This document shows, piece after piece, positions 2,266-39,021 of a DNA stretch of 64,000 nucleotides. The translations under genes and the position numbers were made by a program. Positions within the stretch are counted from its first letter, which is position 1, and each line of letters begins with the position of its first letter. The DNA lies in contig NW_019091355.1 in the NCBI RefSeq assembly GCF_001949145.1, positions 1,635,107 to 1,699,106 on the forward strand. Direction: 5' to 3'. Below the pieces are notes generated by a model. The model saw nothing but the letters and a program-made list of their open reading frames with translations, was not told the origin of the DNA and made no database searches. The stretch comes from Acanthaster planci (taxonomy: Eukaryota).

Positions 2266-5200
2266 TTAGATGGTTTTACAGTGTTCACACTGGAAATGCA
2301 TCTGTGCTGCCTCTCTTGCTGATACCTTTAAATTTATGCATTCCTGATGAAACCACTGGCAGCATGTGCAACAGCAGATCCACTTGATTTTCTGAAAAGT
2401 AAATGGATGATGATCATAACGTCAAACACTCCATTCACTCTGTTTATCTTTGTTTACATTTTTTCAATACAAAGGATTGCATTTCTAAAATCGGGCGCAC
2501 CTTGTGTTGTTTCCGTGTTCTTTTTGTGGGGTTCAGCTTCTTGCATTTTCCACACATATTCTGCTGAAAGAGAGAACAGAGAAGTAGGGTCACATTCAAA
2601 ATACATACTTGAGTAATTGTATGCCCTGACCAATTTATCACATATATGTTTATGTTTTAATAATGCCTTGACCTGATCAAACCCTCCTCATGATTACATT
2701 TCTCATCGGATAAAGTCATTTAGGCGTAGCATTTGGTACGTTATGAAAAAATACTTTGGCCAGTTTATTTGCACTGTCAGTGGTGACACATAATTAGCAA
2801 TTCAACCCGTGAAACAATGCCAGTTTAATCATTATCTCTCATGGACTCTGCTAAGAAAATTACTCAAAATGAAAGAAAACAAAATCAATGTTTACTTACA
2901 TGTTTTACAATCAATTACTACTTTTGTATCGACAATGAACTTACCAGCTCGGTGTCCACTGGTTGAACTTTACAACGTTCACTGAAAAATAATATTGGTA
3001 CACCAGAAGGAAGTACTTTAAGATGCGTCTGACACAACAATCTAATAGGGAAGGATGTGTTGATTGTTGAACATGATAGTACAAGTAAATGTATATAATT
3101 TGAAGCTTTCACTTGAATACTGAAGCCTGAAATTGTGTTACCTGAGTTCATTATGGTGAAGACTCTTTGAAAACAGACGTCGAGTAGCTTGCTGGAGAGA
3201 GACTGAAGTGTCTTCCTTTGATACTGTGTCATGATTTTTAAAGTGTAAAGCGAAATGACTGTCAGTATGAATGTCCAAAACTATTTGCTTCATGTAAATG
3301 GTGAAATGAAACTGTACATTTTTTTAATACATTTAAGGTGGTAAAGTTTTCATTGGCATTCTTTTCAATAACAATGAAAGCACTGTCACAAACGACTGTT
3401 CAATTTACAGTCAGATGCTGCGCTAAAAACCATTACAAAAATCCATTATTTTAACATACTGATGGTTTACTTACCGTCTGTCTCATGTTCATGTGCTTCC
3501 TCCTGCACATCCCCTTCTATTGGCTCATCCTCTCTGTCTTCTCCTGCTTTCAATTTATCACCTGCATTTTTGGTTGAATGTATAAATCTTAGTTTTTCAT
3601 TGTTAAGCATGCACAGATTTAATAGATTTCAAATGAATCAAAAAATAATAAAACTTCAGAAACCATTAAACTAGACAGTACCCAATGTGACCAGAATGAT
3701 TTGTTTGGTCTTCTTTTTAAACCGTTCTCCAACATGCTCTTGCAGTTAAAGGTGTGTTGTTAAAGACAATTGGAGTTTTTCAGTTGCATGTTGGTGGCAA
3801 ACAAACTGGTCCTTTTCTATTTTTGTGCATGTGGTTACAATTGCATGTCCACATTATCCAAAAGGACCACCGTGTCTGCCCCCACCAAGTTTCCTAAACT
3901 CTCCCAATCAATCCAAAGTTAGATGTTCACTTTATCACAATGTACAATGAATACCATTGCACATAAGGCCAAACAAAATAATAGTTTTGCTTCCTATTAC
4001 ATTGAAAACAAAATGGTTGGCAGGTAGGTTGTAGTTTTTTTCCCTTTAAATTGAAAGTTACAAATGTTTATGTTGGGTTTGATTGTCTACTGTGTACTCC
4101 TGCTGCTGTTTTTTCTCGGTGGATTTAACTTGAGGAACGGTCTGGTAAAAGAATTTGTCCAAGTAACTGAGAAGATTTAGGGTTGGCACAATTTGCTATG
4201 TCGCGGCTGGTAAAAAGAAGTGCAACTATTATTTTTTTGCGTAACATTAATGGTTTACTTACCACCAGTCTCTTGTCCAGTTTTTTCCTCCTGCATGTCC
4301 CCCTCTACAATAGGCTCTACCTCTCTACCCTCCTCTGGTTCCATCGTGCCACCTGCATATTTTGTAAAATATTGAGATTGTATTTGGCAATGGGATCAGT
4401 GTACATATATTTCAGTTCCATTCTGGTTCTTTTTATCATGTCATTATGTTTTGACTTGTGAGGCAACAAACTAAAATAGAAATGAACATTAGCTTTCCTT
4501 TGTTTACCAATTGACTCCCTGTGATTTAGACTCAGCATATAATTCCCTAAAAAAGCATGTGAAACCCTATTTTAAAGAATAATGGGAAGATGATTCATTG
4601 CGAAAAGATTTTCACAAAGGAAATGTCCTTTGGACTTGGAAATTTGTCTGCCCATTTTCCTTATTTGCAGCTTCAATATGTTTCTACAGAATTTATAACA
4701 GAATAACTCAACTCCTAAACCTAACAATTTCCAGGGTGAAAAAATGTATTATGGTTATTTTTCAATCTCAACTCCACCTTGTTCTTTAACTGAAAGCTGT
4801 GTTGGAAAAGACAATGGGGAACTTGGAGAGGGCCGGGGGGCAGACAAATTGCTTCTTTTCCACCTTAGTGAACGAATACATATGCCCGGAATTCATTGCA
4901 CATGGCAAATCATCCAGTAGGGCCACTGTGTCTGCTGGCACCAAGTGTCCCAAACTCTCCTATTCCATTACAGTCAGATGTTACAATGAAAACCATTACT
5001 CAAATCCAGTGTTGTAATATATCAGTGGTTTACTTACCATCTGTTTCCTGTCTAAGTGCTTCCTCCTGCATGTCCCCTTCCTCAATTTGATCAGTCCCTC
5101 TTTCTGCTTGTGCTTTCATTTTGCCATCTGCATATTTTTTCAATGTATAATTCATATTTTGCCACTGTGATACGTATCTTTTAGTTACCAATCTGGTTCA

Positions 5201-8200
5201 TTTCATTGTACAATTTGATTTTCATTTGTTGGACATTAAACTGAAAAAAAGTTGAAACATGCATGATATTTGTTTTCCTGTATTGATTAATTCCAAGTGA
5301 TCTATGCTAATTGTTTCACTTACACCTCTAAGTACACATCCGTATAATGTAAAGAGTACGTGAAAAAAACCATTGCCAAAACGGGCACTCACAGGAATTT
5401 CAATTTGTAGCTTGAACTTAGTCTCTACTTATTACTTAATTACAGATTCAATGTTTCAACTGAACCTATATTAAAATGATTAGAATAAAAAATCCTTTTG
5501 CATTTAGTTTAAACACTTTGACAAAATCCATTCTTCTGACAATCTTTCCTGTTGATGCTTTGAAATGGTCTGACAATGAAAGCAATATTAACAAGGGCAA
5601 TGGAACCTTTTGAGATAAAATGTGGCAGCAGAAAAACCAGTCCTTTTCCAAGTTTGTGGACATACTTTATCATAATGTACACTAAGACTATTGCACCTAA
5701 TCCAGTCTTGGGATATACACATATTAATGGCTTACCACCCGTCTCACGCTCCAGCACATCCGCTTCTTCAATGCGCTCCGCCTCTATATTCTCCTCTGGT
5801 TCCATCGTGCTGCCTGCATGTTTTTTAAAAACACAAAACTAATACTCGCAGATGTGTTCCTAGCACAAATAAATAAACACGCGAATGGTTGTTGTGACAA
5901 CAACAATGCACATGTTACAATCGGTTAATGTGCACATACTATTTTGTCTTTCACTTTAAATTGTTCATTTTTTTTAAAAAAGCTTTATTATCAATTCTTA
6001 AATGGACATATACGGAAATCCAACAAGTACAGATTTTTTTACTGAATTTATTTCTCATTTTCTATAATAGTTTCCAAATTTGATGACCAAATTTGATCCA
6101 CATACACTTAAGAAAATAGTTTCTGATATATAAATTTTACAGAAATGGTCGAATGCTATTTTCCACAGCCATAAGTTATACATGTATGTGTGCAGACACC
6201 TTGTAGATAATGTGCCCTCAATGTATAAATTCAAATATGATATTGTATATAAACTTTTAAAGCAAAAATCTACTCCAAAAAAGTCATTACCCTCCTCTGT
6301 GATCCCTTCTTGAGTCTTTATCTGGAAGGCTGAAGAGAAAAAAAATTGTCATATCATATCAATTTCAAGTTTCATATCATCTTCCTTTCATTGCTTTTTG
6401 AAATTATGATGTATGAGTTTTTATGCCTGCACTGGAGAATCCATAGAACTGATACATGTATTATTGTGCAGTGGTTAATCCTTTTCTCCTTCAAATTTTT
6501 TTTAATGTTATTTTTGGTGAATTTTTTCAATTGGTTTAAATTATTGGCAGTTAATATTGTTAACTACTGAGTCAGGTGCCATGTAATTGTCTTACTCACT
6601 GTAAATGAGGATACAATATACTTCTTGAGATTGCTTCAACATGGGGAGTCTTCCAAGTGTGGCAAATATCGAAGAGAGCATAACACAAATTAACACAACT
6701 GAATAAGAATTAGTTTGTGGACCCAGAAACTTATTATACAACCATATATATGTAATATGCATCTAGTAACTGTCATGCACATTACTATAACTTTCTATGG
6801 CTTTTTAATGCGTTCTAAGAATGGGTTCTTTTACAAAACACATAGCGTGCATGTTGATTTGTGTAAGCTCCACTTAACACTGTACAACGGAGAAGTAAAA
6901 GGAAAATCAAGAGGAGTGGTCTATGCACATACAAATGTGGCAACCACACCTTTTTGGTCACATGATTTGTACTAATAGTTTGAATTCTTTACTTCGATGG
7001 AAAGTGTTGGCTTAAATTACAACTGAAGATGCAATTGATGATAACAAGTATACTTGTAAAACATTGGTAATCTGATATGAACAGATTTTTTGAAGGGCAT
7101 TGGAGCAGTAACAAAATTTTCAATTCCTTTCGCTATTGGCAAACTGTAAAGGACAGGCATTTTTACAGTACAGTAGAGTAATCAACAAAGTCAGTGGATT
7201 GAGCACAGAAAATATAAACTTTTTAAATGGATACTTATCTCGGTTGAAAATGTAAAATTCACAGGGATGTTGGGCAATGAAAGTGCTGTTTTTTTATGTT
7301 GCATGGAACAGTTCAACTAATGAAATATTACAAAATGTCTTAAAGAGTACGCTCAATTGCAGCATCCTGTATATGGTGCACTTTGGCGTGAATCATTAGT
7401 ATGGTATCTCGATTTGGCTGAACAATTGACTAATATCATTTAGCATAGCACAGTGCAAATGCATGAAAAGCAAAACTGCGGTCGAATCGCCAGGCAGGGT
7501 AAACAAATTTGCACCACTTTGCATGTCAAAAGCATGAATGAAGTAAGCAGAGGTGTGTGGAGAAATCCCACACTGGGACAAATTACAAGTGTATACAGTA
7601 GTTGCAGAAACTTTACTGCAGAAACTGAAAAATTTCAGGAAAGGTTCACTTACCGTCTTCAATTTCTGATAGCTGTATGCGGGAAAACCTGGCAAAGGGT
7701 ATCCATACACATCTTCTGTTCCTGGGTCCCGATGAGTTCCCTCCTCTTCTGCAAATCCTTTGATGAGTTGACTCTATGTTTAGGAAAACCTGAATAGTTG
7801 TCATCATGGGATCTGAAGCAATCGCCTTTTTACAAGCCTCCTTTGGTGGGTGAGGGATCTCTTTGGCATCTAGCATATCCATTAGTCGGGCAAGGTTAAA
7901 TGCCAAGCCTTTGCTGAGTTGATACTCAACCTTCGGATTTATGGCAGTCAAAAGCTGAAAGAACATAGTTCTAAACTTAGTTTACTTAAAGTTCATACAT
8001 TAAAGAAAAACACGTAAATTAATTGCCAAATGTAGTGTTTGTGGTCAGAACATAATTTGGAAGTTAAAATAAGCCATGTATGCATTTCAGTTGTATTTTC
8101 ATTGTATTTATACAAATACAACATTTGGGGGTTTGTAATGATTTTGAATTAGAAAAATCATTCACACTTTGTGAATTTTTTGTGAATGAAACAATACTGC

Positions 8201-11200
8201 ATGTTGTGAGTTGCGCGCGCGTTTATATGTTTTTTGTTTCTTTGGCCAACACGAAACCGTCAAAGGTTGAAGCTCAGGCAGTAGAATCCTCATGTTGATT
8301 GAAAGTGTTATTTTCATGTATGAGCGTCATTGATTAAAATATGCAGTGACAGCGAGAATCCTTGTTTGGGTATTACCTCTCAGAGGCCCAACACTCTTGT
8401 TGCATCGATGATCAAACCGGCAATGTCCGCAATGTCTTTGCTGGGTGATGGGAACCCTCTCATTTTTGCACTCCCAACCTGGAACTGTTCAATGCCATGG
8501 GTAACAATTGTACTGTTGAAGAATTCCGTAGCGAGGTCAGGTGGGTAGCTTTGAAGATTAGCCTTCCGTAGGAGCTATCATGTATGAAATGGATGTGAAG
8601 ATTACTGACAATGTTAGTAATCACACGACAGAAGTTGCGTGCAAAATTCTTTTGTGCCGTAAAAAGACTCTCGCCAAGTAATGGGCCTACTTCAACTGAA
8701 ATTTTACTAACTTAAGGGGAAAAATAGTTGTCTTTAAATAGAAGACAATAATTTGTCCCCCAATAACTGTAAACCACAGAAACGGGAGGCTCAAATCCAG
8801 AAGATGTCACCCAGAAACAGCTAGATTCAACAATTCAATCAGTTACACATGAAAACTTTGAAGGCATTCATGACCTAGAAGTGTTTTTAGTGGAATGAAC
8901 ATGATGTGTAAAAGCATAAGGAAAATTCAAGTGGTGCACAAACCACTGCATTTTTATACAAAAGGCAACCATAAAATCTCTGCTACTACCTAAATTCTTA
9001 ACAACTCATGTCAACTACATAATTCAGTCTGATTCAAAGATCCTTTTGGAGCCGCATGATTGAGAAAGGGTGTAGGGACATGCATTATATATAAAACAGA
9101 CCATAATAATATCTGGAAATGAAAATTTGATAAACCCCACTAGTCTCCTTAATTTTAAAAATCCATGCTTATTTGTAGATAAAGGCGAGAAGTGATTGAA
9201 TTTCTAACAACAGGGACAGTACCTGCTCCATTCCCTAAAATTTATCCCAAACCTGTGAATCTAAAAGGGTCATGTTGTGACAGACCAAGTACATAGGAAA
9301 ATATCATCAGTCTAAAGTAGATAAGATTCACAAGTTATGTGCATACGTACGTATTCAGTTAGAAACAGAAGTATCCCATAGGTCAGATGTAAGCGGTCAT
9401 CTGCATCTGTGAGATGGGATAATGCTCTTGCTACAGCAACTCTACTTGTCTGGGAGATTTTTCTTCTGTTTTCTCTCATTTCCACACCAGCTGCAATAAG
9501 CACAGGCATACGCTGCACAGCAGAGTTTTCGAGTTCGTGTCTGTTGCTTTCTGCCTGAAATTGACGCTCGTCACATCTTCTTTGTGTACTGAGAAATGGT
9601 ACGATCACCGCCCTTGTCATCTCACTGTAAATTAAAAAGAATTGCTCAGGTACCTTCAGTGTAATTGAAGTATTTTTTTTGTACTGTCCATCTTGCTAAA
9701 AACAATTTAAAAAATGGATTTTATAATATGACATAAAATATGACAACAACATTTCAAGAGATCCAAACCACATTTTTAAAAACTACAATGATTTCTTGGT
9801 GTGAGTTTGTTTCCTTCTAGTCCAATTTCAACCTGAATAGAACAGTGTTGTCCATTTAAAGGATTATCCAATTTATCCGGTTATATCAATGTATGTGGGC
9901 TTTTAAAATCATTCTGGATTTTAAAACCATGATTTCTATTATTTCAACAATAACTGACAAAACTTTTTTCAAAACTGGATGACACTTGCATAGAGACCCC
10001 CGTCTGGAAAGATTTATTGATTTTGTTGATCATTTTACCTACCGCTCACATCCAGCCAATTTAGAGAGAGCAAACCAGTTTGCACTCACAACAGGACAAC
10101 ACTTTGGAGTTGCTTCCACTGAGCATGTCGCATCAACCCCAGCATTAAAGTACTTTGTCATCAAGCCCTTAATACTTGCAGGCTCAGCATCGTCTATGAT
10201 GACTGGGATAGAGGAAGAAGCAGTTGCCTTTGGCAAGTATCTCTCACGTGCATACCCAAGTAAAGCATTCTTCGCCCCTGTCATTTTAGATGCCATCCGG
10301 CAAGAGGTAGTTTTGCCTGGAAATGTACATTTCACTGTCTGTTAGCTCATATGAAAACCAGTGAAATAATCCAACGTAACAATAACAATTTCAGCAGTTG
10401 ACATGTAGCTCGTATTTTTGCACTATACTGGTTTTGTGATATGGAAAAGGTCCCCAGATGTATTCCAGACTTTGACAACACTAGTGTTGTCAAAGTTCTC
10501 AACTTAATGAAACTGTACTTATTTTTATACACGAATTGCAATATTTCGTTTTGAATACAACAAAAAGCATGATGGCAGCTTGATGACTTTTGGTGGGCAC
10601 CAAGGATGCCTTTTCATGTAAAAAATCTATGAATATTGTTAAACCCTTCTTCAATTGGTAACGTGACAGAAAAATGTTCTACAAATTTCTAAACGACAGT
10701 GTGCAAAATGATTGGCACTAACCTGTATTTATATCCCCGATAATAATTGGCACCGGGCAGCACTTATACAAATCTATTACTGTCTCATAGTGCAAGGACA
10801 TGCAGACACATGCTGAAAAACCAATATAATGGTTCATCGTTAGAGTTCCTCACAAACATAAATCAGGAACGTCAGCTTGTAAGCATACCTTCTCTGTAAT
10901 CATGGTTATTCAACATTATAATATAACTTCATAATCTCTTGAAAGAATTTAGACTAAAAATACAAATGAGCTAGCAATAAATCAGAATAGTAGCCAAATC
11001 CAACAAGAAATAAAAGAAATTTCACCCCTTAATGTTATTATAACCTCCACAATTCCAACTGACAAAGTGCAACAGACTGGAGTCATCGGGACCGGGCTAA
11101 CAAAATAAATTGTGCCTCAGGTCTTACACTTACAGTTGTTCAAAGCAACCAAACAATTTCCTTACCTACAGTGAAAAATGCGGCCATCGCATTTTCGTGC

Positions 11201-14200
11201 AACGTTTCTGCCAACGATAGAAACACATCTCTCAGAACTTGCTCTGAATTGGCATTGTTGAAATGTTCTGGCACTTCTAGGTTGCTTCCTGACATTGGAA
11301 GGAGTTTGTCTACCCAGTAGTACATCTGTCTTTCTGGTGGTATCTCCTCTCCATGCGCATCTAGCTGGAGAGTAGGTGACAGAACCCAGATGTCTTCCTT
11401 TGGCTGTTTGCCAACGCAAACAGCCGCCGGCTGCGTTGTTGGTATTCCTTCCTCTGTACACCGCCTGGAAATAGGACCATAGGGTCATTCTATGAGGTAG
11501 GGTCACAATTTGTAACAGTGTCTTGGTTGGATGGGTCAGTCTAAAAAAACTCACTTCTGTGTTTAGTCTTGATATCTACCAATGTCAATTGAGAACCAAA
11601 TGCAGGGAAGTAGCATTTCGTTTTTACAAACCCGTGTAACAGTGGCATCGTTACACATTGTGCCCCCAACCTCATGGAATGACCCAAGTAGTTAGCTCAT
11701 TCGATTTTGATGTATCATCAATGTAAATGCCACTTCGTACCGTACAAACCAGCTGATACGCAATGTTATTGTATTTAAATAAAGTGATCCAAGTCATTCG
11801 ATTTAAGTCATAACAAGTTTCATTTCTCTCATCTTAAAGAAGGTTTTCAAGTAAAAACATAATTATATCTCTTTCTGTGAGGATGGGGGTAGGAGTGTTT
11901 GAACCTAGAAGACATGTTCTAAATGTGACATGCCTATGGCCTGCGTGGCAGGTTCGTCAAAATCATACACCATTAGGATGAGGTTCAAATTCATTTTTCT
12001 GTTATTTATGCGCTTTATGCCAGCGAGCGAATTTCCTAGGTCTGATGAATTGAGGGGAGTAATTGCTCAGGTTCCGAATACTGAAGTCTATGTCCACATT
12101 TCTTCTTAGGCTTATTTCAAAAAATTCAGTCAAAGTGGCCAACGACGTCCACATCTCGGACTTAAAGAAGGCCACTGCGGTAAAACCTACCGGGCATTTG
12201 CATTTTTTTAAAATTAATGTTGAAAAAGTTTGCGGTAGGCCTACCCGCTGCTTATCATGAATCGGACCGGCCAGCCGACCCCGGCAAGCTCAGCGGTCGA
12301 GTGGTTAAGATGTCAACACCTGCAAGCAGGAGGTCGCGTGGGTTTGGAGTCCCACTCGAGTCTTAAAGCCCGTGTGTTTTTCACAAGCTATCGGACAGGG
12401 ACTGAGCATACAGTGTTTATCAATATACATGTATACGTTGGGTAAGGGCAAAACAAGTTATGAAAATTACATAGTATCTGTTTTCCTTCCTCCATGATAG
12501 GATGAAATACTTCTGCAGCAATTTTGCATGCATATTTGTGTTAGGATATGGTAATATTTACAACTATTAAATCTTAATCTCGAATTAAAAACACTGTGTG
12601 TCGTTGGTCATGAACTATTTTGTCGTAATAGGCCTAGTCTGATACTAGTGGTTAGGTCGGACTTAGTGCTTCTTGGTCGCCTCATTTAGACAAACCAACC
12701 ATGAAATGACAGGGCCTATGTGTTAATATTTGCCTCTTATTTCAGTTTAATGATTATTCATCTCAAGTGTCCCTCGTAACCAAGTGACGCAAATCGATGC
12801 ACATTCATGAGTACAGCTTCATTTTGTCAACTCGATTATGCAACGGAGGCGTCATAAGATTTTTGTTATTTGGTTGTTTACATATCGTTTTGGTACTACC
12901 AGGATGTGAGAAGCATATCAGCAGACCATAGGCACTAGTACCCACGTATAACGCGCCTTTGCACGACTCGGCCCTCATGACGAGAAGACAAAAGTTCTTC
13001 GTTTCAAATTTGAAATTGTGACGTCTCTAACGCAAATGCTGCGCGAGTATTTGATTTATCACGGCAGGAATTTAAGATTTGAAGCGGGCATAACTCACCT
13101 GTAGAACTTCTCTACCTCACACAAAAAGAATTCCTTTAATTCACTCTTGCTGAATGTGTGAAGGAGTCCGCCACAGCCAGCTCCTTCGATGCCAAAAGAC
13201 TGTGAAAGTTCCGTCGTGAACTTATCCAAGCCAGCTTGAATGCAGGAGTGCGTGATGAAGCACAATCTGGTAAAAATGTTCGGTAGCTTATCAGAATTCA
13301 GGTTATATGAACACAAAAGTAATCAGAGGCGTTGTATGTCAGCACAAATGCATTTACGTTGGTCGATACGATTCATCGACCATTCATGAGAAAATAAAAA
13401 ATTACTTATTCCAAACACCGAAATGTTTTTGGCTATGCAAAAACAAGTTTCAGAGGTTACAAACCCACCATTGATTCTTATTCGTAGATTACACATTTTC
13501 ACAAATCAATTTAATTTCAAACGTTACCGCTAAGAGTTTTTAAATTGACATTCAGAAAGACTTTACAATTCCTGTGCGCACGTGATTACCTGTCACAAAT
13601 CCAGCTTGGATAAGGAATTTATAGCAAAACCAAGAACTAGTTTCAATAGGCCCGTGCTACCAAAGCCATTGCTTCAAGTTCAAATGGGTGCATAATTACT
13701 AAATCATTAGTATAGAACTAGTACAACAGTCAGGATTGGTCTTGGATGGCACAGATCAATTACAATTCCAGAAGCCGGGGAAACGACAATTTCAACTCAG
13801 GTGATGCCATCAAGTTTATAAGAATCTCCGCCACATCACTATGCAAAGCCTGACCGATAATCCTTTTTTGAGATTTACGACACAAATGAGGCTACCCCGG
13901 CCCGCGGCTGCCCTCTCATGGGCGCCGTTGACTGTGATATTGCTAGCCGACAGTATTCGTAAACAAGTTATCTTTGTCCTTGCTCCATGATTAAAGCCTC
14001 TTCTTCTTTTTACAGCGGGTTTTAAAAAGACTATCGATGGTCAAGGTATAAGGATAATCTGGGACTTAATTCTAGTTTATTATCAAATACTTCTGCCGCC
14101 GCCGCCGCATCCATCAATACAATCAATATGATGTTTGCCAACCCAACGAGCCATGTTACTTTAACACCGAGGGACGATATCGCGCAAAAAGTTCTCTTTC

Positions 14201-16011
14201 CAAATATGTGATAAACGACAATAAAAAAACCGAGGTCTTAATCCTAAAAACCATACCACTTTTGAAATTATCTCCAATTCAAACTTAATCAACAAAATGA
14301 GCAATTACCCGCATTTATTATTCAAAAACACGGCAAACGTGTATTGTGCAACGTGAAGTTGGCTGACCACCCACCTCACACGAGTACCTCTGTACTGGAG
14401 AATGTACGTTTTTCTAGCAATGAATGTTTGTAACCGAGGAAAAGGGTTTGGTGCAGGTTTCAAAACCGAATTTATTATCAAATGACACTGAATGTCAAAA
14501 TTGATATCAGCAGCTGGGACAAGGAAAAAAATTAATAAGTTGGGGGAACTGCGAGGGAATCTCATCCCGGAAATGATTAATATCATATGCTACATACACA
14601 CATCAGATTTCATTCAAGGTCTGAATAAAAATTAACATGACCACCGCCAAAAAAATCAGAACGTTTACAACAATGTCAATGATAATCTAAAACCAAATAA
14701 TAAAAATTAGGGTATACATTAAACAGATAACAATCGACGCAGAACCAATACTCTACCAGATACAATGTCTAGCACAAAGCAAGTTGCAAACCTTTTTCAA
14801 TGGGTCTGTCAAACTCCCAAGTCAGATTGACGCAGAAGTAAATTTGACCCCGGGATTTTTGTCGAGTGGAGTGCATTTATAAATTGTTGAACGTGCAGGT
14901 ATCAGAGGCAGCTTCAACATGGTATGAAATTGAATAGACAGTGCATAAATCCCCAAAGTAAGAATTGTAATACACGGACATATTACCGCAAATGTTATTC
15001 AAAACAGTTATTACAATGAATTGACAAAGCACAACCGTTCAGGTTAAACAGCTAACAGACAAACTACAATATCCGCTCTTTGGCCTCACGAGAAAAACAC
15101 GTTTCTGTAATGCATCATCCAAAGGTTTAGGCCTTGGTGCGATGGTGTGGTATGGACAAATGTAATCTCCAACCCTCAATAAACAAGAACGTAATTACCC
15201 AGGCCCAGCCGACTTGGCTGAACCCTGTGATAACTCTAATTATTAATTGAAAGAATAAACTGGGAGCTTGGTCTTTGGTTTAATCCACCCACACGTTAGA
15301 ACTGGAGGCATTCTCATGTTACAGGGCACCAGTTTCTTTTCCACCAAAATGTAATATAAAAACCATAGCATTAGCACCATACCTTACATGCAAAGTTCAA
15401 TGCACAATCTCAAATCGTAACCCTATTACGAAACGTCCACTGTCCATTTCAGCCAGTAGTATTTTGACCTCGCTAAAAATCCATGACAGACGAATTCGGA
15501 GTTGTCAGTGGGGCTCAAAACATTACTTGATAATGGACATGGACAATGAAAACGTTCCTTGGGATGTGCTAGTTGAAGTGATGTTTTCATTTTCTTATAT
15601 TATGATAGAGGAATCGTTCACATACATGTACTGCTGTTCGCTTCTTCTCCATACAAATAACACCAGCTTATGTAAAGAAGATTCTCAATCAATCGTTTTC
15701 AAAAAGTGCGTATTAAACTCTTAATGAAAAGTATATGTTTTGAAACAATTCCTCCCGTTAATTCAGTTTATGCCATTTTACATTTACGTATAAAGTACTG
15801 GTATGTAAATAATGTTAAAAAACGGTTTGTTTGCTTACCTGGTGGTATTCATCAAGGCACTACTAACATCAATTAGCAACCCAGCACTCTGCGACTTGTG
15901 TCCGGCATTTATGATTTTTCGTACCGTCATGGTGAATGATGCGACCTCCTTTCTGCTTATTATTTTATTTTGTTCATTTCTCCGGATTTTCCAAGTTCTA
16001 TTGTCCGCCAT
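2266..16011 (-). CDS. 17-exon gene: P-loop AAA+ helicase-like domain (DUF927/Cch- or SF3-like), acidic repeats and C-terminal PHD finger; about 815 codons with one in-frame TGA at codon 491 (possible recent pseudogene)
   Basis: Exons, all GT-AG and phase-compatible: 16011-15839, 13266-13099, 11464-11166, 10812-10723, 10316-10043, 9624-9351, 8574-8377, 7954-7654, 6329-6291, 5813-5736, 5127-5038, 4352-4263, 3561-3475, 3202-3142, 2981-2945, 2563-2501, 2391-2266 (2448 nt). Motifs: Walker A PIIIGDINTG|KTT split by an intron, Walker B PVIIDD, sensor-1-like VVSAN, Arg-finger-like TRAVIVPF. PHD finger: CGKC...KIKWICCCTCCQWFHQEC...FQCEHC-stop. The ATG at 16011 directly follows an acceptor, so the true start may lie upstream (17095-17049 is open in frame). 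Confidence 0.8.
12275..12455 (+). mobile_element. Degenerate tRNA-derived SINE, family B
   Basis: tRNA-like head gctcagcggtcgagtggttaag...gggtttggagtccc followed by body gagcatacagtg...gggtaagggcaaaac. Confidence 0.55.
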
Positions 16012-19000
16012 CTGAAATAGTTCTGTTTTGAAAAGAAAACTTTCATCAATTTCAAAAACTTGTAAAAGCAAGATTACAATGCCCGTAAGAGGAAGAAAGG
16101 CAAATAATTTAAGATCGGTGATGCTTGGCCTTAAAGCATGGTCTGTCACAAGAAACTGTTTCCGTATAGGTCTAATTCATTTCGTTCGGCTCTTTTAATG
16201 TACAAAGATGACGGGTATAGTTTTTGTATTACTTTGCTTACAAGTGCAAGGAAAACAAAATGGGAACAACAACTGATGGGGTCCGTCTACTGTACGCTCC
16301 TGCGCCACAACTGCTAAAAACGTTAGACGTCGATAATGAACAAAACATACAACAGCTACATCCATGTACAGACTATCACAAGTGTTTTTGGATATCAAAT
16401 CACGCACAAATCGCACAAATCACTATTCATTAAAATGTGATTTGAGATTGATAATGGATGTTGTAAGCCAAATTCAAATTCCAAGTTTAGTTTGAAAATT
16501 TTGTAAAAGTTTGATTTAATTGATCGAATTCCAGCATCTACCGGTTTCATTTCCGTAACCGCCCATGCGATGAACACTACAACGATTTCAGCCCCCCTAA
16601 TAAATATACACCATTCTGTTACACTCAAATTAATAGTTTCCTTATTATGATGCACCAGTGTAACTGCATTTTTTCAACAGGTACGTCACGAGTGTGGTCC
16701 GATGTCCGCTCCTTTCACACGTAAGTGAGAGCGGGCGGACGCCGGATAGATAGCACGGTTTGAATGGTATTGACAGCCACTTGTAGTTTGAATTATTGGT
16801 CTTCTTACCAACGACTTCTTGGAATGGTGATGAAGCATAAAGACTCCATAAACACGTGCGAAATATACACAGCCTCCTTTCAAAATTGAATTGTACCTGA
16901 GTTGGTAAAGCAGCTTGTAAATATTTCCCCACAAATCGTGTCAGTTGAAACATGGAGAAATGAAATTTTCCTTTCTCTGTGACCGAAATGTAGATGTTTC
17001 ATCTAAATTGTTAAGTGCATTTTCATGGTCAAACTTCTATGTACTTACCGTTGCGTGACATTTTCCTTCTGATACCGTCAATCTCTGTCGAATACCTGTA
17101 TCTTTCGGCAATATGTAAAGCTTCAGGGGGATACGATCATAAGAATTTAGAGTCAAGGCAGAATGCTTCCTAGACCAAAAGCAACTTCGAGGCGACTGTA
17201 AGAATAAACAATCACTTAATTAATGTTATCAGGTGCAGTACGATACATATTCATTACGTGGACGATGTGATAAACATTGCTGATGGTCAACCCGTACTCT
17301 GTCTGGATCGACTTATTCTTTAAGAAGACCCACGAAAACATATTAATACAGCTAAGACGGGTCATCGTGTGGGTGAAATCATTGTTTCGAAAGGTCGTTA
17401 AGAAAATCTGGGCCCACCTAGAAATGTGCTCCGTCGGGAATTGCATTTGCTAAAGGGGGTATCTTTCGATGTCGTATAACGTGTAGCTGAAAATGGAACT
17501 TCTTTTAATTAAAAAAGAGACGCGTGGGACTTAACAATGTACAACCAATTAACTTGCAGTGATTTCTCTCATTTTACATTTAGGCCAAATACAGGCTCGA
17601 GGCTAATGCCTTATGGTTTGCGGTGAAGTGTGATGCAACAATTCTTCTCCTGTTTGTGGATTCATAGCATCTGTTATTAGGAAAACAGAAAGAAACAACA
17701 GGCCCACATAAAAGAAATCAGAGAGATCAACCTGCAACGTACACGACATATTTCTGGCTTGTTTGTTCTCCTGAAAACAGATGCGATACAGTCTGTTGGA
17801 CTGCCGAAATTCTGTACATGGGTACAAAGTAGTAAGTAATATGGGCAAACACAATCATTGCAAGCGCCCTTCGCAACTCATCTATGAAAACACAATAAAT
17901 ACTACGCTACGTAATGTTCCATAAATGTACATTGGCAAGTGCAAATCTACCGCATCAGCGGTAAACAGTCAACTGTTTCTTGTAAACGCAGGCGTCGTAG
18001 ACCGACCGACCTTCGCATCTGCAAAATAAAACAATCTGTCCAAAAGCTACAAAGGTTCGTTTGATCAATTGGACTAAAAAATTGATCATTTGGGAGGTTT
18101 CAATGCGTAGGCCATACCGTCGACAAATGCAATAAAGGAGTTCATCTTGTGAACATCACATTTAATGCAGGTTTTTCCAGCGGATGTTATTTCTGTCACC
18201 AACATTCACATATGAGAATATTACGAAGAGGCTTGTCCCATCTCCTATTTACGTGAAAAAGTCGAATACGTTTTGAAACAGCAATTAGTGTGGGGTCCAT
18301 GCTGTTTCAGTGTTAGTGGCAGCTAGGGGTCCATGCCATGCAGCAGCCTTCTGCATAAAAAGCGCGTCAATTCATCACCTTAGCCACGATAGTGATGAAG
18401 GTCTTTTCTTGACATACCTCAGGGGTGTTTTCAGTTTGTATTGTGTAATTTGTAATTCTCCGTGTCAAGTGTTATGTTTGTTGTTTATGTCTTGATACAT
18501 TCCCCTTAGAAATGATATGAATGAGCGCTGGAGCCAAGCGTTGGGTAGCCGTTAAAACCGCTGTAACTCACACGTCCGTTAGGTTTATTTCAATAGTGTA
18601 GGAGAAACGCGTTTACGAATCATGCACGGATGTAAACACGTACATACACTACAGGCAAATGTTGATCATTTTAAAAACTAAAAAAGTAGAACAATCGAAT
18701 ATGCATCATTTTGAAGTCATAACACCTAGATGACTATATACAAAGGCTATAGAATCAGAATGTGACAAATCATGGAGGAATGTCTATTTCTTCCTCTATG
18801 GACAAATGCAATCCAGAGTGGAGGACTAGCCAAAAGCAACATGGTCTTCAGCGATGAGAATGGGTAATGAGAGCGCCCTCAATATCATGAAAAGAACTGT
18901 AACAATTTCATATGCATCCTGAGTACTAAAAGATGACGTTATTGATAAAAAAAACCACATTACCAAGTTGACGGCAAGGCTCTTACTCCCTATAAGGAAA

Positions 19001-23097: not shown

Positions 23098-26000
23098 CTA
23101 AGTAGTGCTGGTGCTCTTTACAACTGGAAGCAATGGGTCGTAACCGCTATTGTAACAATACTCAGTGTACTTGTTACGCCGAACCACCATTCTGTGCAAA
23201 TAAAACAAATGGTGTAATTTTGGCATGGCACACAATATTTTTTTATATCGTGACAGCCACACGAAAGTTTGCTCAGCACAAAGAGTATTGTCCGTCTCCA
23301 ACAGATGATCATCTGGGTTATACTTTGTTCTGCACAGCTTGTCGGTGTGGTTTCGTACATGTAACCTGTCTACACACTTGTGCAGATTCAACCACATGTG
23401 AGACCATGGCCACGCAAGTGGTAACGGTTTCCTAGCAACGTTCATGTTGTCCAAGTGGCACATATTATCGTACACTATGGACAAATTGGACCACGAAGTA
23501 AACGGCACCGTCCTCAAGAAAGGAAACAGCCAGGCTATGAGAATCAGGAAGACCTGTGAGGGTGACTCTGACCTGTAGACATACAATACATTTACAAAAA
23601 TACAAAGTAAAAAGGGGAGAATTATATGAAAATGCTTTTTTTTTGTTAATGAAATATGAAATCACGATATCGTTACATCTTGTTTACTTTCGGTGCCGAT
23701 TGAAATTGAAGAAAAAATCAAAGTAAATGGGAGCACAAATTATATGGACTCTTGGGCAGAAATTACAGATTTTGTCTGTATAAAACACAGCGCAAATGGC
23801 TTTTTATTTTTTTTGTAATTATTTCTGATTTAATACTTTACACATGTCAACATATTTTAAGATCATTACATGACAGTAATTTAAAATGACAACCTTTCCG
23901 CATCTAGCAATCTCCATAATTTTGCACACCATGGTTATTTACTTCAGAGGATAAAGTAGGTTAAACTCTGTCAAAGTTAATGACTTCAGGTCAAGGAACG
24001 AACTAAACGTTCACGACTGGCCTAGCAACAGTCCGGATCTCAACGCAATAAAAAATCTCAGAAAGGTTGAGAAAGAAAAGGTTGCAGAAAAACAGCCATC
24101 AAATACCAAGGCCTCAGTTTAAGCCATCAAACAGTCTGTTAGAAGGAAATAAGGGTGGACTACTGTCAGTCTCTCGTAACCAACATGCCATATAACATTC
24201 AGGAGGTAATCGCAGAAAATTGAGGGCACGTTAAACATTAGACTGTCCACACATATTGAGTTATTGACATGCGGTCAACAAGCAATTCAGGCAAGACAAA
24301 ATAATGAACATTTGAAATCGATGTCAATTCCAAACATTTATTTCAAAAAAGTTAGGTTTTTCCTCCGAGCTAATGCATTTTTTAATGGGCAGTCTTCAAC
24401 TGTTCATACTGTCTGGAATTCTTTTTACTTTAGCTGCACTTTTAAAAAAGGTGCACTAGATAACAGCTTAAAAAGAGGAGCATTATGAAGATTTAACAGA
24501 AAAGGATCAATGTCCAATGCCTATTTCAGATTAAATTTCAGAACATACTCACTTGTACAAAGTTTTCCAAAACTCAATATGGCCACCAGCACGAACAACA
24601 AATAAATGCCCCCTTGACCACTTCTGAAGTCGTTTCTTGCCTCCAACATCCTTCTTACAGGTCGATGGTATTTCTTCCACACATTCATTCAGCATGGTGG
24701 AAATGGAGTAGCTGTGTTCATTGAGGAAGGCTGTTGTTCCTATTGTCAATGTGGGTTGCGATAGTAAGAAGAGTAGTTCAGATCACAGGAATATAGGGTT
24801 ACATGAGGAGATGTTCAGACTCCTTTTGTATAGTGTGGTATTTTGAATGAATGACAATAATGTCTCCAACCTTGGTCTGTTTCATACTATCTATATGCAA
24901 AACAAGACATGGGATGTAGGGTAACCCCTACAAGTAACTAAAAATATTTTTCTCACATAAAGCCAATTGACGGGCAAAAGCAGCTCCAAAAATTGTCAAA
25001 GTCTATGGTAGCACATGCATATTCGAATGTGTATGCATGTTTCGATTGCCAATTGCATGTGCGTCACAAGAGTATGGAACTTAGACTCTGTTGATATCTA
25101 TTTAAGTTGTACCCCAAGTCACAATTCATATCAATGATAACAAGACAGACATTATAGACTATTGAGAATGAACACATGAACCTTGCCCTTTTTTCACATA
25201 ACACAAAATAATGAGATTCACATTGGATACTTTATGGAAAGCTTGGGTTTCGAAAGGTCAACCGTAATTTGTGGTTGTTTCACAGATAAACGAGAATTTT
25301 ATAATGTCTAGAATGTAATGTATGCTTGCATTTCCATACGTGTACATTTATCTAACAATATTCCAGGCACAGAATTTCTTTACATCTTTTCAACACAGTG
25401 GTTTGTTAAGGTAAAAACAACGCAATGTAGAATTTTTGGCAAGAATTATTCATTCATTTACAATATGATTGTACAGATTACGCATTGAAATTTCAAAGGA
25501 GACAATTCAGGTGTAGGCAGCAAGGGTAACTACTGAAAAATAAATGCCCCTGGTGCAGCATTTCTCACCTTGGGCATCCACTACAGATTCACCACAACAC
25601 GACACTGGCTGCAACTTGGACAGGACTCCACCAACTTTAGTGATTGTTTCTTCTGTTGAAAACAAGAACAAAAAATCAGCATAAATTTGCATATCATTCG
25701 GTAAATGTATCTTACACATTCAGATCAGTTTGTAATAATAACAAATATAATGGTTTAAAAATAAGGGAAAAAAAACTAAGAGGGTGGATGGCCTTAAGAT
25801 GTGCACAGGACAATGGGCACAAGTCACGTCAAACCAGGCTTACCCCATTCAAAGATTTATTCGCATTAGCACATGCCCTTTGAATCAAAACAGCTCAAAA
25901 TATGATGGAGTTCACTTAGAAATTTCAAGAATGTTATTGAACTACTCAAGCACTGAAACCCCTCGGCATAACTTGCAAACAGCAGCTTTTTGAAAATAGA

Positions 26001-29000
26001 CTAACTTTTTTATGGGGGGGGGCCTAATACCTTGCGAGTCTTGAGCAGTTTTTAACATGATTGCCATTTTGCTGCTGGCTTTTGAAATGTACATTATAGT
26101 GCCTCCATTGCTTCTTTATCAAATGGTACCAGGTCTGGCCAGTTCATGAAATTTTGTATTAACAACAGGAACAAGCGTAATTGTATAAACAGGTTACATT
26201 CAATTTTTCAATGACAATGTATGCAATACTGCAATTCAAGATTACACTTACAGAGATGACTACCCCACAAGGGAAAAAAGAAACTTTTTTTTTACCATGT
26301 TTGGATGTTCATTTTGGTCTAAAAACATCAGACACAAAAATTATTGAAAAAGGTTATAAACAAAAAGGGCTTTAATTTGGAACAGGTGCCTGTGGCCGTG
26401 ATTAACAATCTCCACATGGAATGACGAATGCACCGAACAATTTGCGTGGACCCAATGGTCTTTGTCATTCTACTGTAAATACAACATAATGATCAGAACA
26501 AGTCAGGGCCAAAACAAAATGGTTCCACCAAACAAACTGGCCAAATGGACTTACGATTGCAATTAGCATCACATGCAAGGACTAAGTTCGCAGCAGTATT
26601 GTCAAGAGGTGTTGATGGGTCTTCACTCGCAGTCAATGTTGATGCCCCGTCACATGCAGTCAGCATAGTTAAGCCTTCACTTGCAGTTGACGTTGATGGG
26701 CCTTCGTTCGCAGTTGATATGGATCTCCCTTCACTTGCAGTTACTGCCGATCTGCCTTCCCTCGTAGTTGATGTTGATGGGCCTTCGCTATCACGCAATG
26801 GCGTAGGGCCTCCAATGTCAGCAGCGGAAAGGCCTTCAACACAAAGATTACATCAATAACAAGTCCGTTTGAAATTCTTCTTTGAATAAATGCAAGTTAC
26901 GATGGAAACGTAAAGAAAGCATGAAAAAGGTATGATAGAAAAATTTAAAGGAAGTACATTTTGAACATACAAACTACAACTTGCTCAAACAATGCAGAAG
27001 AGAAAATAATAAGATGCAAAAAGAAAAACACACAAAAACACAAGGAATAAAAGGTCCCAATCGGCCAGCTATATAATCATGCAAACATGAAGAAAAAAAG
27101 AAGAGTATTGCGGCCCATGTGAAAGAACAGCCACAGTACAAAAAGAATTAATCTTTTCAGATTAAATGTACAGTGTTCTCCACAGCCTAAGATTAAAACT
27201 GGGCGACATATGATGTGAGCCCGGACCTTGAAACCATAACGGCATCTGGTGCCCGCCACAGGAAATTTTTTATTCTAATTGCTTTGTGGTGCAATCTGAG
27301 GTATTTCCTGGGCACCTTTTTTGGACTCCTTGAATCAGATTGGCTTATGTTGAAATGAAGGCAAGATTGTTATCAGTAGGTCATCAAAAGTTGATTTTAT
27401 TTTGCGGGGTATTTCTTTATTTACTCATCAGAACTTGCCATTGAGCGGATGGTTCGGGATTACATGTACGTACGTTTGCGCAACATGAATGGATCGTGCA
27501 TGGTCGCTTTCTAAAATCTGGGTATCAAAAATAACTCCATGGTCTGATTCCAGCCACAGAATCATTTCACTTCGGTGAAATGCAGTCAGTCATCAAGTTC
27601 AGTTTTGACTGTTTTTCAGCTGTACTGTGAGCAATCAGCATCTATCCCCCTGCCCTGCACAGTTGACAAACCCATTATGTCACATACATGTGCAATGTAC
27701 AATTCACAACTAGGAAAAATATGCAATGATTTTAAGCCAATTTACATTAAAAAGTCTCCAAAAATTATTTTGATTACTTCTTTTCTGCATTGTATATGTT
27801 TGCAGAAAAAAAAAGTGTACAAGAAGTTACACTTCACCAAAAATTGTTTGAGAATTTAGAACACATAAGAAGATGTTATCGAAGCAGAAAAAAGGAAGTT
27901 TTATTCAAAGCAATTCCAATCTATGAAAAAAAAATGGAAATGTGGAGATCAACTTCAGACTCATATCTGGGAAAACAATTTGGTAATAATCTGAAATGGG
28001 AAAGTCACATTTTGGATGTTACCACTAACTGTAGGAATCATTGGGCATTATCGGGAGAAACTTCAAAACCTGTCAAGTTGGTGTATAAACACAGTTATAC
28101 AAATCATTGATCCTGCCTAAACTTATGTATGGTTCTGCAGCCTGGTATCCAACAAAAAAGAATGAGAAACCCCGTCTTGACATGATCCAGAGATCGGCTA
28201 CTCATCTGTGTTTGGATGACTACTCTAGGGAAGGGAGTGTTACTGAAATGCAGCACCGACTGGACTGGCCAAACCTTGAAGTTAACTGGAGGGTCGTTAG
28301 ATTATCTCTGATGTATCAAATTAGCCCCAACTTATTTGATATAAAGTGGGAACATCACCTGTGTAAACCCTCTAGAAGCACCAGAGGACACCATTGCTTA
28401 TCATTTATACAAATAACAGCAAAATCAACTACTTATGTGAACAGCCTTTTTCCATGAACAATCCCTCACTGGAATACCTTGCCACACAATATTTTGGACA
28501 TAGATATGTATGACTCCTTCAAATCTGCACTAACAGATCATTTTCAGTAATTTCATAGCCCAGCCAGCACCAGGTCTTTAGGTCATCTCTGATGAGAAGC
28601 GGATACCTGTTTCAACAGATTCACAAATCCTGATCCACAACTTTGATCACTAGTGGTGCCAAGTGCTTTTCTGTTGTGTTGAATAATGATGGCAAACTCA
28701 TCCTGTTCGTTTCATAAAGTGCGATAAACTTTCTTTGGGTTTGCATAAGTAGTGCAGATGGTGGAGAAATCCAATAGAAGAAATAGCAGGCCGGTGAGAA
28801 TTTAAGCGGGGCGGCACAAGTTTGGTGGGGCAGTCTAAAGTTTTGCCAGGGTGGCCCGCCCTGCTAGAACAATGACTGTAAATTTTCATTTTATTTATCA
28901 AGCAAAATGTTCTACATAACAATAGATGCAGGCATAGACAGGAGCACACAAAAATAATAGTATTCACAGTGATTAAGCTTTAACCCTTGGAGGGATTTAC

Positions 29001-32000
29001 GTTTTACTCCTATCAAAATGACAAGTACATGTAAACTCGACAAACAGGCAAACAGAAAATCAACCAAGTATGGATGAATGCAAGAGGACAAAAGGAAAGG
29101 TCAAGAAAGCTGCAGGCTGGATAAAGGGGAAAAGGATCAAGGGGACTGGTTGAATAACAAAGGAATGTAAGCAGGGAAGAGATCAAAGAAAAAATACAAT
29201 GGATGGAACTGGACTGCAGACAAAAAAGAAGGGAAATAAAAGAGTGTTAATTAGTAGGTTCATTCTTGGATGCTCAGGCCATGGGGTTGTACAGTATGGT
29301 GCAGAGGTATTCATTCAGAGCTTCTCCCAGGTGACAAACAGGCAAACAGAAAATCAACCAAGTATGAAGGAATGCAAGAGGACAAAAGGAAAGGTCAAGA
29401 AAGCTGCAGGCTGGATAAAGGGGCAAAGGATTTGTGACCTGTCACCACAAAATGAGCTAACTTCACACATACGAGATATTGGTAATTTTTGAATTTAGCA
29501 GAAATTGAGCTTTCCAATGGCATGTACATGGAACACTTAGGGTAGAAGTACAAGGTGACAATGTGACATTATTCTGGCAGGTTTGCATCTTTGTTCCCGA
29601 CATTGTTTCAACATTTCAGACCAGGAACAGATAGTGCTATCGTCAAAATTGCTAAGGAAATGACAATTTGCAATATGTTATTCTGCAAAATATTTGAAAA
29701 TAAATAGGAAGTGGTTTACTCTTTCCAAAAATTAACAAACCAAAACATTGACCTCTAACTTCAATATGACTCTGAACCCTCAAAACAGGAAAGAGTGGGA
29801 TGCTACTTTACTCTCATTTTGTCGTGACAGGTCACATATTTGACATCAGAAGAGCTACAAGTGATGGTACCTCTGGTTCAGTGGGTGGTAACGCAGGAGT
29901 GTCAACAGAAATGTATCTGATTCCAGGACATGGTTCTGGCAAACAGCACATCTGTTAAAATCCAAGCTCAAGGTGCCATGCTGGGATGGGGAAGGGTAGG
30001 GGGGGGGGACTCTGGCCGGGTGAAAAGGTCAGATGGCTTGCAGGGTCGCCTTTAGAAGTTTTGTATTACAAAAACCCCTGGACACAATTAAGCATGACAC
30101 TCTCCTCATTAATCCTCAGCCAAACCCATTACTCCTCAGCCTAACTATGGAATGCCCTACCATGGCATATACAGAGTGAGCAAAGCCACACCATTGTAAC
30201 ATGTACAGTTAAAACTTAACTTTGTAATATTGCATTTGTCCAGTGACATATTAAACTGCAAGATTCAGGATTTTATTAATTTTAACTAGTAGGGTTATTA
30301 AAATTTTTTAGTTTTTATCTTAACGTAGGTTCAGCTGTGATTCGTTATTTTAGTGTCACTGTGTCTGGTATAATTACTTTTCTTTTATCGTAGGTAAGGA
30401 GCAGGCCAAACAAAACAATGTTCGAGGAAGTTTCTGTTTCTTTGGATAATTGATTTGGTTTAAGCAGTTCACATGTTTATAGAATAGAAGGTCAAATCGA
30501 AATGTTCCTAGGATGGCTATTAGATTTCATTTGAAAGCAGTCTTTTAGGAAAGTGCATCTAACGTAAGGTTACCATACTTTGGAGAACATTGGTTTTTGT
30601 AAGCTAATGCACTGTAGTGAGGTTTTGAGGAATTTAGGATATGGGAGTTCCTCCTTTTTTGTATAGCCTTAGATTGAAAGTGCCTGAAGTCATACGAACC
30701 GATTTAACCTTTCCATGTTATCCTTGTATATCTTAGTCATGAGTTTTGGGTATATGTGTACACTTTTGTATTCTTCTATTGCCATGTGGTTGAACATGTA
30801 TCTTGGATAAGACAGTTTTCTTTGTTCACCCTTCCTATGCCTCAACACATGGTTGGAGCAATTTCAGTTTATGACTAGGGATTAGGATTAGTGTTGCCTG
30901 CCTTCCAAGAAGTGGCCAAGTCCTTTGTTAATTGCATCATGATTATTCATGAGTTAAACCTGACTTCTTGTATATACATGTAAGCCCCATGCTTAAGTTG
31001 GGATAAGGATGAAGCCTTCACATGTACATGTACTAGCCTTGTATAATGCACTGAATAGTTCTTTGTTGTAGCATTCATTTATAAGTTTTCCATATTTATT
31101 CTGGTTGTTGAAGTTTGATCGTAATTGATTTGTGCCTTTTCTTGATACTGTGTTTGGTTTTGGTTTGTTTTTTGGGGGGGTCGTTATTTTCTCAATACCC
31201 GTTTCTGTTTTTTTAGTACTGCTGATATTTATTGAGAGTATTTTACTAAAAGGTTAAGGTTTACTGGGTCTAAAAGTTGACTTTCTAGGTCTCAAGTTTA
31301 CGGTCTGAGGTATTTTCACTAATTTGGGTTTTTTTGCTTTTCTTTGACTTTTCATTTTTGTTACTTTTTTATCGGCTAAGAAGTTACTTAATAGATTGTA
31401 GATTAGTTTTTTTCTAGATTGGCTCTTGTTTGTTGAATCAAATATTTTTTTCTTTTGACTATTTTTGAGATCAAACACTTTTTCCGTCCTGTCGTATTTT
31501 TCTTAAAAATACCTCACGATTTCTCCTTAGTTGATCCCTAGTTAGGTATTATTTTGTGCAAGCGATTTCCCCCCAGAGTTGTCTTCTTCCAGTGTTCCTT
31601 TTTTTCAAGTTACATTTTTAAAAAATCATTTTCGGTACAGGTACGTGATCATCTACTTGTCAATGTACATGTACGTGTACTAGCAAGTCACTATCAAACC
31701 TTTTAAAATCCAAAATGGCTCTATTTCGGATTTGAGGTGATACAGCATGGAAAGCTCTTTGCAGGACATGTCTAGGATGAGTTCCTCTTAGTAACAAACC
31801 TGACTAAATCAAGCATACTTTGACCAGACCAACTGGAAAGAACCTACAGTACATGTAGCAAAAAATGCTGTTACGTGTTATGGGTGCTGGGTTGTTAGGG
31901 CTGATATACATAGCAGCAACTGAGACACTCAATAGAAAAAACAAATGGTTTTTCTGGAGTATTTAACAATATTCAAAAATTGTATATGCACTGCAAAGAA

Positions 32001-37701: not shown

Positions 37702-37940
37702 GGTATTGATTCATCATAAATACAACTGTTTCAAACGCAAAAAGACAAAGATAAGCAGAATACCCAACGAGAAATGTAAGTCGAAAAGCAATGATATGAA
37801 AAATCTAAACACGTGCGTGCGATGGCTAGAAGAAAAGGGAACGTAAAGGGAGGGAACGCGCATGCGTGGGGTTTGTAGCAGGTAGCGATGCTACAAACTA
37901 CCAGCCCTGATTTCTTTCGTCCCATTTCGTGCATCAATTG

Positions 37941-38700: not shown

Positions 38701-39021
38701 TGTATACATATTTCATTGCAACACATCAACACGAGGAAAAGCTGACATGCCAGACGTGATCAACAGGAGAGATGTTTTTCCTCGAGTTTTAAGACGTGAT
38801 TTATATGTAACGTGACGTAAAATGACAGAGTCTAGAGAGGGATCCTCAAATAAGGTGTGACTGTCAGTGACTGTGAATAATATGTAGCCATTTTTCTTTT
38901 TTTTTCTCGTGTCTTGTCCGGCTTGTGATTGTCTGAATTTGTGGCCTAGACACGCGTGACATGTACTAGGCCTAGTCTGGTACTTCCCAGTCGTTTGAGT
39001 AGGCCTAGGCCTTTTCTGTTT

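Follow-up and report, generated by a model that had tools for sequence, protein, structure and literature searches.

A spliced gene for a predicted helicase with a C-terminal PHD finger beside a KDZ-type transposase gene in the starfish Acanthaster planci

In the genome of Acanthaster planci, exons for a helicase-like ATPase are followed on the same strand by two exons that encode a PHD finger. The locus raises the question of whether motor and finger belong to one protein and, if so, what a motor equipped with a putative histone reader would do. It was examined in a window of 64,000 nucleotides (contig NW_019091355.1; all positions given here are those of the window, the whole stretch analysed). 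The initial annotation had proposed an element-encoded motor tethered by its finger to histone H3 tails. The explanation preferred here, at a probability of roughly 0.55, is that a spliced, transcribed ring helicase of the Cch/DUF927 type with an H3K4me-reading PHD finger serves as an accessory gene of a giant KDZ transposon.

Exon chain, splicing and an in-frame stop

The gene consists of 18 predicted exons, with the following features:

17049..17195, minus strand: candidate first exon with an ATG at 17061, proposed from sequence only
10723..16058, minus strand: N-terminal domain to Walker A, exons 16058-15839, 13266-13099, 11464-11166 and 10812-10723, from the open frame
10043..10316, minus strand: ATPase exon with the end of Walker A (GKTT), Walker B (VIIDD) and sensor-1 (SAN), from identity to starfish proteins
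9351..9624, minus strand: likely arginine finger (REMTRA) and helical lid, from contigs of runs X1 and X2 and a paralogue match
8377..8574, minus strand: exon absent from the earlier chain, from joints 7954/8377 and 8574/9351 and its translation
7654..7954, minus strand: C-terminal alpha/beta domain of the motor, probably winged-helix-like, from joints and a paralogue model
2945..6329, minus strand: linker exons 6329-6291, 5813-5736, 5127-5038, 4352-4263, 3561-3475, 3223-3142 and 2981-2945, from RNA joints
2501..2563, minus strand: exon with Cys1 and Cys2 of the PHD finger and a basic stretch, from RNA contigs
2266..2391, minus strand: last coding exon with PHD Cys3 to Cys8 and the His, both pocket Trp and the stop, from Pfam PF00628 and joint 2391/2501 in X1 and X2

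X1 and X2 are treated as RNA runs on the ground that GT-AG introns retained in DNA-like runs are missing from their contigs, a comparison made over two introns. RNA contigs hold GT-AG joints for 11 of the 12 introns between the Walker B exon and the PHD finger. These 11 comprise every intron downstream of exon 9624-9351; their joints come from contigs of X1 and X2, runs of two studies, and seven joints are common to both runs; joint 7954/8377 is carried by one contig, with 32 letters on its short side. Every intron between exons 7954-7654 and 2391-2266, a link that the initial annotation had singled out, has such a joint. The remaining intron, 10043/9624, has no RNA joint among the listed rows of RNA contigs, and no single RNA contig spans ATPase to PHD. 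The 10043/9624 junction is bridged by XP_022101414, a single protein with 63% identity over 499 residues whose sequence continues across it without a break.

The initial annotation had also described an unbroken chain of phase-compatible exons from ATPase to PHD. RNA joints link those exons from 9624-9351 onwards, but the chain had left out exon 8574-8377, which is present in RNA contigs and, being symmetric (198 nt), was skipped unnoticed by a chain built on phase alone. This exon contains an in-frame TGA at 8382-8380 (minus strand) in the window assembly, so that no fusion protein is encoded by the allele in the window. Base 8382 differs from the window in all four runs that cover it (one RNA run and three DNA-like runs of one study). 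All four read a sense codon, which leaves a private allele or an error in the assembly as the source of the TGA. Window differences at 7732, 8533, 9512 and 10156 are common to RNA and DNA-like runs. The 82-nt exon 3223-3142 is required to keep the frame, and its joints are seen in RNA contigs.

RefSeq annotates the PHD half only (LOC110985910), with a start Met downstream of the TGA, in exon 7654..7954. RefSeq isoform X1 (P0153, 306 aa) matches the C-terminal end of the exon chain residue for residue, and the isoforms of 306 and 305 aa match two acceptors of exon 2501..2563 (at 2563 and 2560, 3 nt apart), each of which is used in RNA contigs. Together with the stop in the window, this model would make the PHD half a separate 306-aa protein, which is exceedingly improbable given that RNA joints extend upstream of it via 7954/8377 and 8574/9351, that the covering runs do not have the stop and that the paralogues are single proteins. 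RNA joints connect the PHD exons with those of the helicase, which contradicts a separate PHD transcript, and the truncation of the RefSeq model is due to a stop not present in other individuals. Within the PHD region, one X1 contig leaves the intron at 2364-2530 unspliced and one X2 contig departs from the sequence at 2449, a possible case of intron retention or of an alternative 3' end.

Towards the 5' end, two exons are 49% and 44% identical to the Patiria protein P0004. RNA cover of the upstream exons extends only to 11347-11166, plus 10812-10723 as a loose end, and exons 16058-13099 have none in the RNA contigs. X7 and X11 are raw-read runs; the fifth or so of them that was analysed covers repeats and a little 3' flank and no coding exon, and is uninformative either way.

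The motor and its predicted fold

The ATPase exon is 81% identical to Acanthaster and 70% identical to Patiria proteins. The motifs GDINTGKT, VIIDD, SAN and REMTRA are all intact in the window gene, and the motor motifs are conserved across 100 homologues, with the G and GK positions nearly invariant. The labels Walker A, Walker B, sensor-1 and arginine finger are assigned by analogy with AAA+ proteins. Pfam gave no match on the ATPase exons, and PHROGs gave only matches at E 0.26-0.51. The Pfam DUF927 profile did not match the paralogue, and the sponge homologue scored 20.3 bits against a cut-off of 22.6; DUF927 was found at E up to 0.01 in 9 of 100 family members.

A 63%-identical paralogue was modelled from an alignment of 100 sequences at a mean pLDDT of 76 (32 in a three-sequence version) and compared with 48,161 solved chains. 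The model matched Cch (5dgk) at Z 22.2, with 311 aligned residues and an rmsd of 4.1, and SaPIbov1 Rep (8tch) at Z 19.7-20.2 with an rmsd of 10.7. The next-best matches had Z 13.4-14.4, and the scores for MCM8/9, D5, papillomavirus E1 and MuB were 13.4, 11.8, 9.0 and 7.3, respectively. Foldseek likewise returned a Cch-like fold for the model (E 1.5e-7), and matches in the Atlas and a viral structure library were DUF927 proteins and phage primase-helicases. The fold is thus predicted to be nearer to Cch and SaPIbov1 Rep than to MCM, D5/SF3 or MuB. The motor probably functions as Cch does; it is a distant relative of the Cch/DUF927 helicases and not a formal DUF927 member, because the starfish protein lies below the Pfam cut-off.

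Helicases of the Cch/DUF927 type are known from bacterial islands and phages. Cch of SCCmec and SaPIbov1 Rep are AAA+ helicases of staphylococcal mobile elements that contain DUF927 and are related to MCM, and Cch moves 3' to 5', according to the available part of the source (PMC7581432). The starfish motor resembles the two in predicted fold over about 310-350 residues, in Walker A and B, sensor-1, arginine finger and C-terminal domain, and in the position of its gene beside that of a mobility enzyme. It differs from them in its many introns, in an identity of only 11-12% and in the addition of an acidic linker and a PHD finger, and its partner is a DDE transposase whereas theirs is a recombinase. 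By analogy with Cch, the starfish protein may form a ring and unwind DNA 3' to 5'. For the predicted C-terminal DNA-binding domain, the alignment of the model with SaPIbov1 Rep extends to residue 509-518, at an rmsd of about 11. In the available text on Cch2, proteins of the Cch type bind the origin repeats of their own element through the C-terminal domain (PMC7581432).

The motor could also be a target-selection ATPase, in which the PHD finger chooses the target DNA and the ring, in the way of MuB or TnsC, marks it and recruits the transposase without any copying of the element. A precedent for such a finger is RAG2, whose PHD sets the chromatin binding sites of a transposase-derived enzyme in the accessible part of one report (PMC10462144), and none of 15 open frames (at least 70 aa) near the gene matches a primase or polymerase in Pfam, a search that short exons would escape. 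The predicted fold is far nearer to Cch and Rep than to MuB, however, and an origin-binding domain of the Cch type argues in the same direction, which makes target selection quite unlikely.

PHD finger, acidic linker and homologues

The exons 2563-2501 and 2391-2266 (minus strand) encode CGKC-x17-WICCCTCCQWFHQEC-x14-FQCEHC, followed by KTI and the stop; the protein had initially been read as ending directly after FQCEHC and is three residues longer. The C-terminal C4HC3 PHD pattern described there is confirmed by profile: on the last exon alone, PF00628 scores 24.7 bits (E 2.4e-5) against a Pfam cut-off of 24. Full-length homologues score 27-33 bits and the RefSeq isoform that is one residue shorter scores 18 bits. 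The Cys/His pattern occurs once in the window in six frames and not at all in 30 shuffles. In the paralogue model, the finger is predicted to be folded with confidence.

The closest PDB sequences to the finger are PHDs of Alfin-like proteins and KDM5A/B, aligned with Trp at both pocket positions. Like the starfish finger, Alfin-like PHDs and KDM5A/B PHD3 are C4HC3 fingers with both Trp, and the Alfin-like motif WICC..C..WFH is nearly that of the starfish. We take the two aligned Trp to be the pocket positions of KDM5A. The W preceding the second Cys pair presumably occupies the histone-binding pocket and the residue before the last Cys pair is here F, both by a PHD numbering that we assume. 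Both pocket Trp are present in four starfish proteins and in the sponge and absent from the tardigrade finger. Directly after Cys3, the starfish proteins have C, G, T and G, none of them acidic, while the sponge has E. This departs from H3K4me3-reading PHDs with an acidic residue at that place, which we take to be the Arg2-pocket position and to be common, though not universal, among such readers. H3K4me3 readers have an aromatic cage with an invariant Trp that readers of unmodified H3 do not have, as described in the available part of PMC3241642. On these residues, the finger is probably a reader of H3K4me2/3. The tethering of the motor to H3 tails suggested in the initial annotation is plausible because the two Trp align with those of H3K4me3 readers.

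Motor and finger are separated by an acidic linker of seven small exons with 31% D+E. Four of these exons (within 3475-5813) are tandem duplicates, 61-80% alike including their flanks (repeats D1 and D3), and in paralogues unrelated repeats have expanded at the same place. The linker of the paralogue model has pLDDT below 50 and is predicted to be disordered. Long homologues have a low-complexity stretch, in many cases a repetitive one, that either separates motor and finger or forms the C-terminus.

Homologues were sought among 1.84 billion representatives, with 235 matches at E up to 0.001, the best 150 of which were considered. Named homologues among the matches listed are from starfish, sponge, hemichordate, amphioxus, a hydrozoan and a tardigrade. 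The ATPase and a PHD finger stand in one protein in Acanthaster (XP_022101414, XP_022111568), Patiria (XP_038066289), the sponge (XP_019860089) and the tardigrade (XP_055330522). Homologous helicases do carry the finger, then, and the fusion is kept in starfish, sponge and tardigrade relatives, but among the listed matches of at least 500 aa the finger is present at the C-terminus in only 4 of 14: two from starfish, one from the sponge and one, below the cut-off, from the tardigrade. The query paralogue also bears one. Amphioxus and Clytia models have no PHD. The finger is an optional module in this helicase family, whose starfish paralogues are 33-63% identical.

The KDZ transposase neighbour and the status of the pair

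A second gene lies upstream on the same strand:

23098..37701, minus strand: KDZ-type transposase gene LOC110985613, 730 aa, nine exons, from the RefSeq protein mapped exon by exon

Its frame is intact and it ends about 6 kb upstream of the helicase gene. The protein matches CxC5 at E 1.2e-14; precomputed PF18758 (KDZ) matches exist for 3 of 18 transposase homologues and not for the window's own protein. A 27-bp tandem repeat within one exon (26611-26789) gives a Ser/Thr-rich insert. An intron contains an open frame (28089-28454, plus strand) with no Pfam match, which presumably resembles the end of a LINE reverse transcriptase.

The pairing recurs, with co-location read from equal size of contig or scaffold. 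The KDZ homologue LOC110990776 and the helicase-PHD gene LOC110990775 have consecutive ids and are both on an Acanthaster contig of 32,084 bp. Both Patiria helicase models share a scaffold size with a KDZ homologue, at the level of scaffolds of 21.8 and 46.7 Mb only. A KDZ homologue is found on the same contig for 4 of 5 starfish helicase models; the fifth, LOC110985028, has no KDZ match on its contig, and two starfish KDZ matches have no helicase match on theirs. Because it stands beside a KDZ transposase gene, the helicase is likely a helper gene of a giant element. The earlier proposal of an element-encoded motor thereby gains support from the RNA joints, the fusion in paralogues and the recurring KDZ neighbour. 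Helicase and transposase trees of four pairs are discordant (Ap32k with Pm46M at 95/98 versus Pm46M with Pm21M at 94/95), which would count against strict co-inheritance of the two genes.

Among 14 metagenome loci, most of them shorter than 9 kb, two (L004 and L009) carry, on the strand of the helicase and upstream of it, a DUF6729/Zisupton-like ORF, which in L004 is 6 kb away. With a likeness of 92-95% over both genes, the two loci may represent copies or alleles. Neither a PHD nor a KDZ of the window type was found in these 14 mostly short loci. In L004, the Zisupton-like ORF is intronless and encodes 930 aa (1176-3965, plus strand), with C-terminal motifs that we take to be OTU-like and cysteine-cluster motifs; L009 has a deleted version of it beside retroelement remnants. 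In a third locus, L011, broken frames of a small AAA/Rep-like ATPase with weak Pfam matches (5836-6706, plus strand) lie 1.7 kb upstream of the helicase homologue.

Incongruent trees, together with phage primase-helicases as the closest predicted viral structures, would also suit a remnant of an endogenous virus or self-replicating element with the KDZ gene as a chance neighbour. This is very improbable: three scans of viral contigs yielded a single match, of 29 residues (L015), no phage record matches the hemichordate homologue, no capsid or polymerase match in Pfam lies near the gene, the gene is intron-rich and the pairing recurs on the 32-kb contig.

A rather unlikely reading is that of a domesticated pair, in which both genes derive from a KDZ element and are now fixed host genes, the helicase-PHD being a chromatin-targeted DNA motor of the starfish. 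No terminal inverted repeats or target site duplications were found between 1-1900 and 37760-40400; an end may fall in the gap 37941-38700 or beyond the window, and terminal inverted repeats are absent from Kyakuja elements. The stretch 7600-10400 is one contig in each DNA run, and the locus was found in all six runs containing it, from three studies. There is no sign of recent copies, since each DNA run has a single contig and the starfish paralogues are only 33-63% identical. With searches for element ends, a primase and recent copies all negative, the window copy may be fixed or domesticated, and because it appears single and widespread it may no longer move. Its spliced structure points the same way, as does the transposase core, which is 80% identical to a Patiria protein and thus closer to it than to any Acanthaster paralogue. 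Against domestication stand the intact transposase frame, the nonsense allele or error in the reference, a window gene that does not group with any Patiria helicase, and paralogues that cross species lines, as in long-lived transposon families.

The surroundings contain several other features. Just past the gap upstream of the transposase, at 39011-39964, lies a MITE-like fold-back element, about 950 bp long, whose inverted arms are nested. At 389-492, 32372-32476 and 12254-12462 there are tRNA-like SINE copies (identified by eye) and a high-copy repeat with heavy read cover. Two probable host genes follow, one for a zinc-knuckle protein (zf-CCHC; 40457-48300, plus strand) and one for a long low-complexity protein with no Pfam match (55735-61288, minus strand).

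The accessory-gene reading finds its nearest parallels in known transposons. Giant KDZ (Kyakuja-Dileera-Zisupton) elements with accessory genes have been described, and like the starfish pair they combine a CxC5-bearing transposase with a transcribed accessory gene. The accessory genes named in the available parts of these reports are TET/JBP or unnamed, with no helicase among them, and the elements reach 30-32 kb compared with about 36 kb for the starfish two-gene unit (PMC12730594, PMC12477816, PMC11343200). KDZ elements have 7-8 bp target duplications and termini, neither of which was found at the starfish locus. AcademH and KolobokH are, in the accessible text, likewise low-copy DDE transposons with a helicase gene, but their helicases are DEAD/Helicase_C (SF2) proteins and not AAA+ rings, and their transposases belong to different superfamilies (PMC10799480). 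RAG2L of the echinoderm RAGL transposons has the same layout as a second gene with a core, an acidic hinge and a C-terminal PHD with a methyl-lysine Trp, as far as the available source goes (PMC10462144). Its core is a kelch propeller while that of the starfish protein is an AAA+ motor, and the transposases are unrelated, so that the likeness is one of analogy only. In the literature covered, which leaves aside Iyer et al. 2014, the AcademH paper and Repbase, no KDZ element with a DUF927/Cch helicase was found, and a giant element of this kind is apparently undescribed.

If the helicase is an accessory gene, the PHD finger on its long acidic tether would place the motor on H3K4-methylated, open chromatin, and the C-terminal domain would bind DNA repeats of the element. 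The ring helicase could then unwind element DNA for the adjacent KDZ transposase, and unwinding might help the latter to copy or release an element of 30-40 kb during transposition. More tentatively, a giant KDZ lineage of animals may have captured an initiator helicase of the bacterial or phage Cch/SaPI Rep type at an early stage of animal evolution, added a reader of H3K4me and come to copy itself from active chromatin. If that possibility were true, the element would be a DDE transposon that replicates with the help of an MCM-related ring motor of its own, and the starfish locus would be an intact, expressed example of it.

What the starfish locus contributes is evidence of splicing, an assignment of structure and a copy that, over the stretch compared, has an open frame in other individuals. 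We know of no mechanism established for the movement of KDZ elements of at least 30 kb; with a two-gene copy that is intact and expressed, in vitro tests of such a mechanism become possible. A helicase-PHD beside a KDZ transposase would parallel RAG2L, and an intron-rich animal family of Cch/DUF927 type, joined to a histone reader and a KDZ transposase, would constitute a new accessory motor of eukaryotic DNA transposons.
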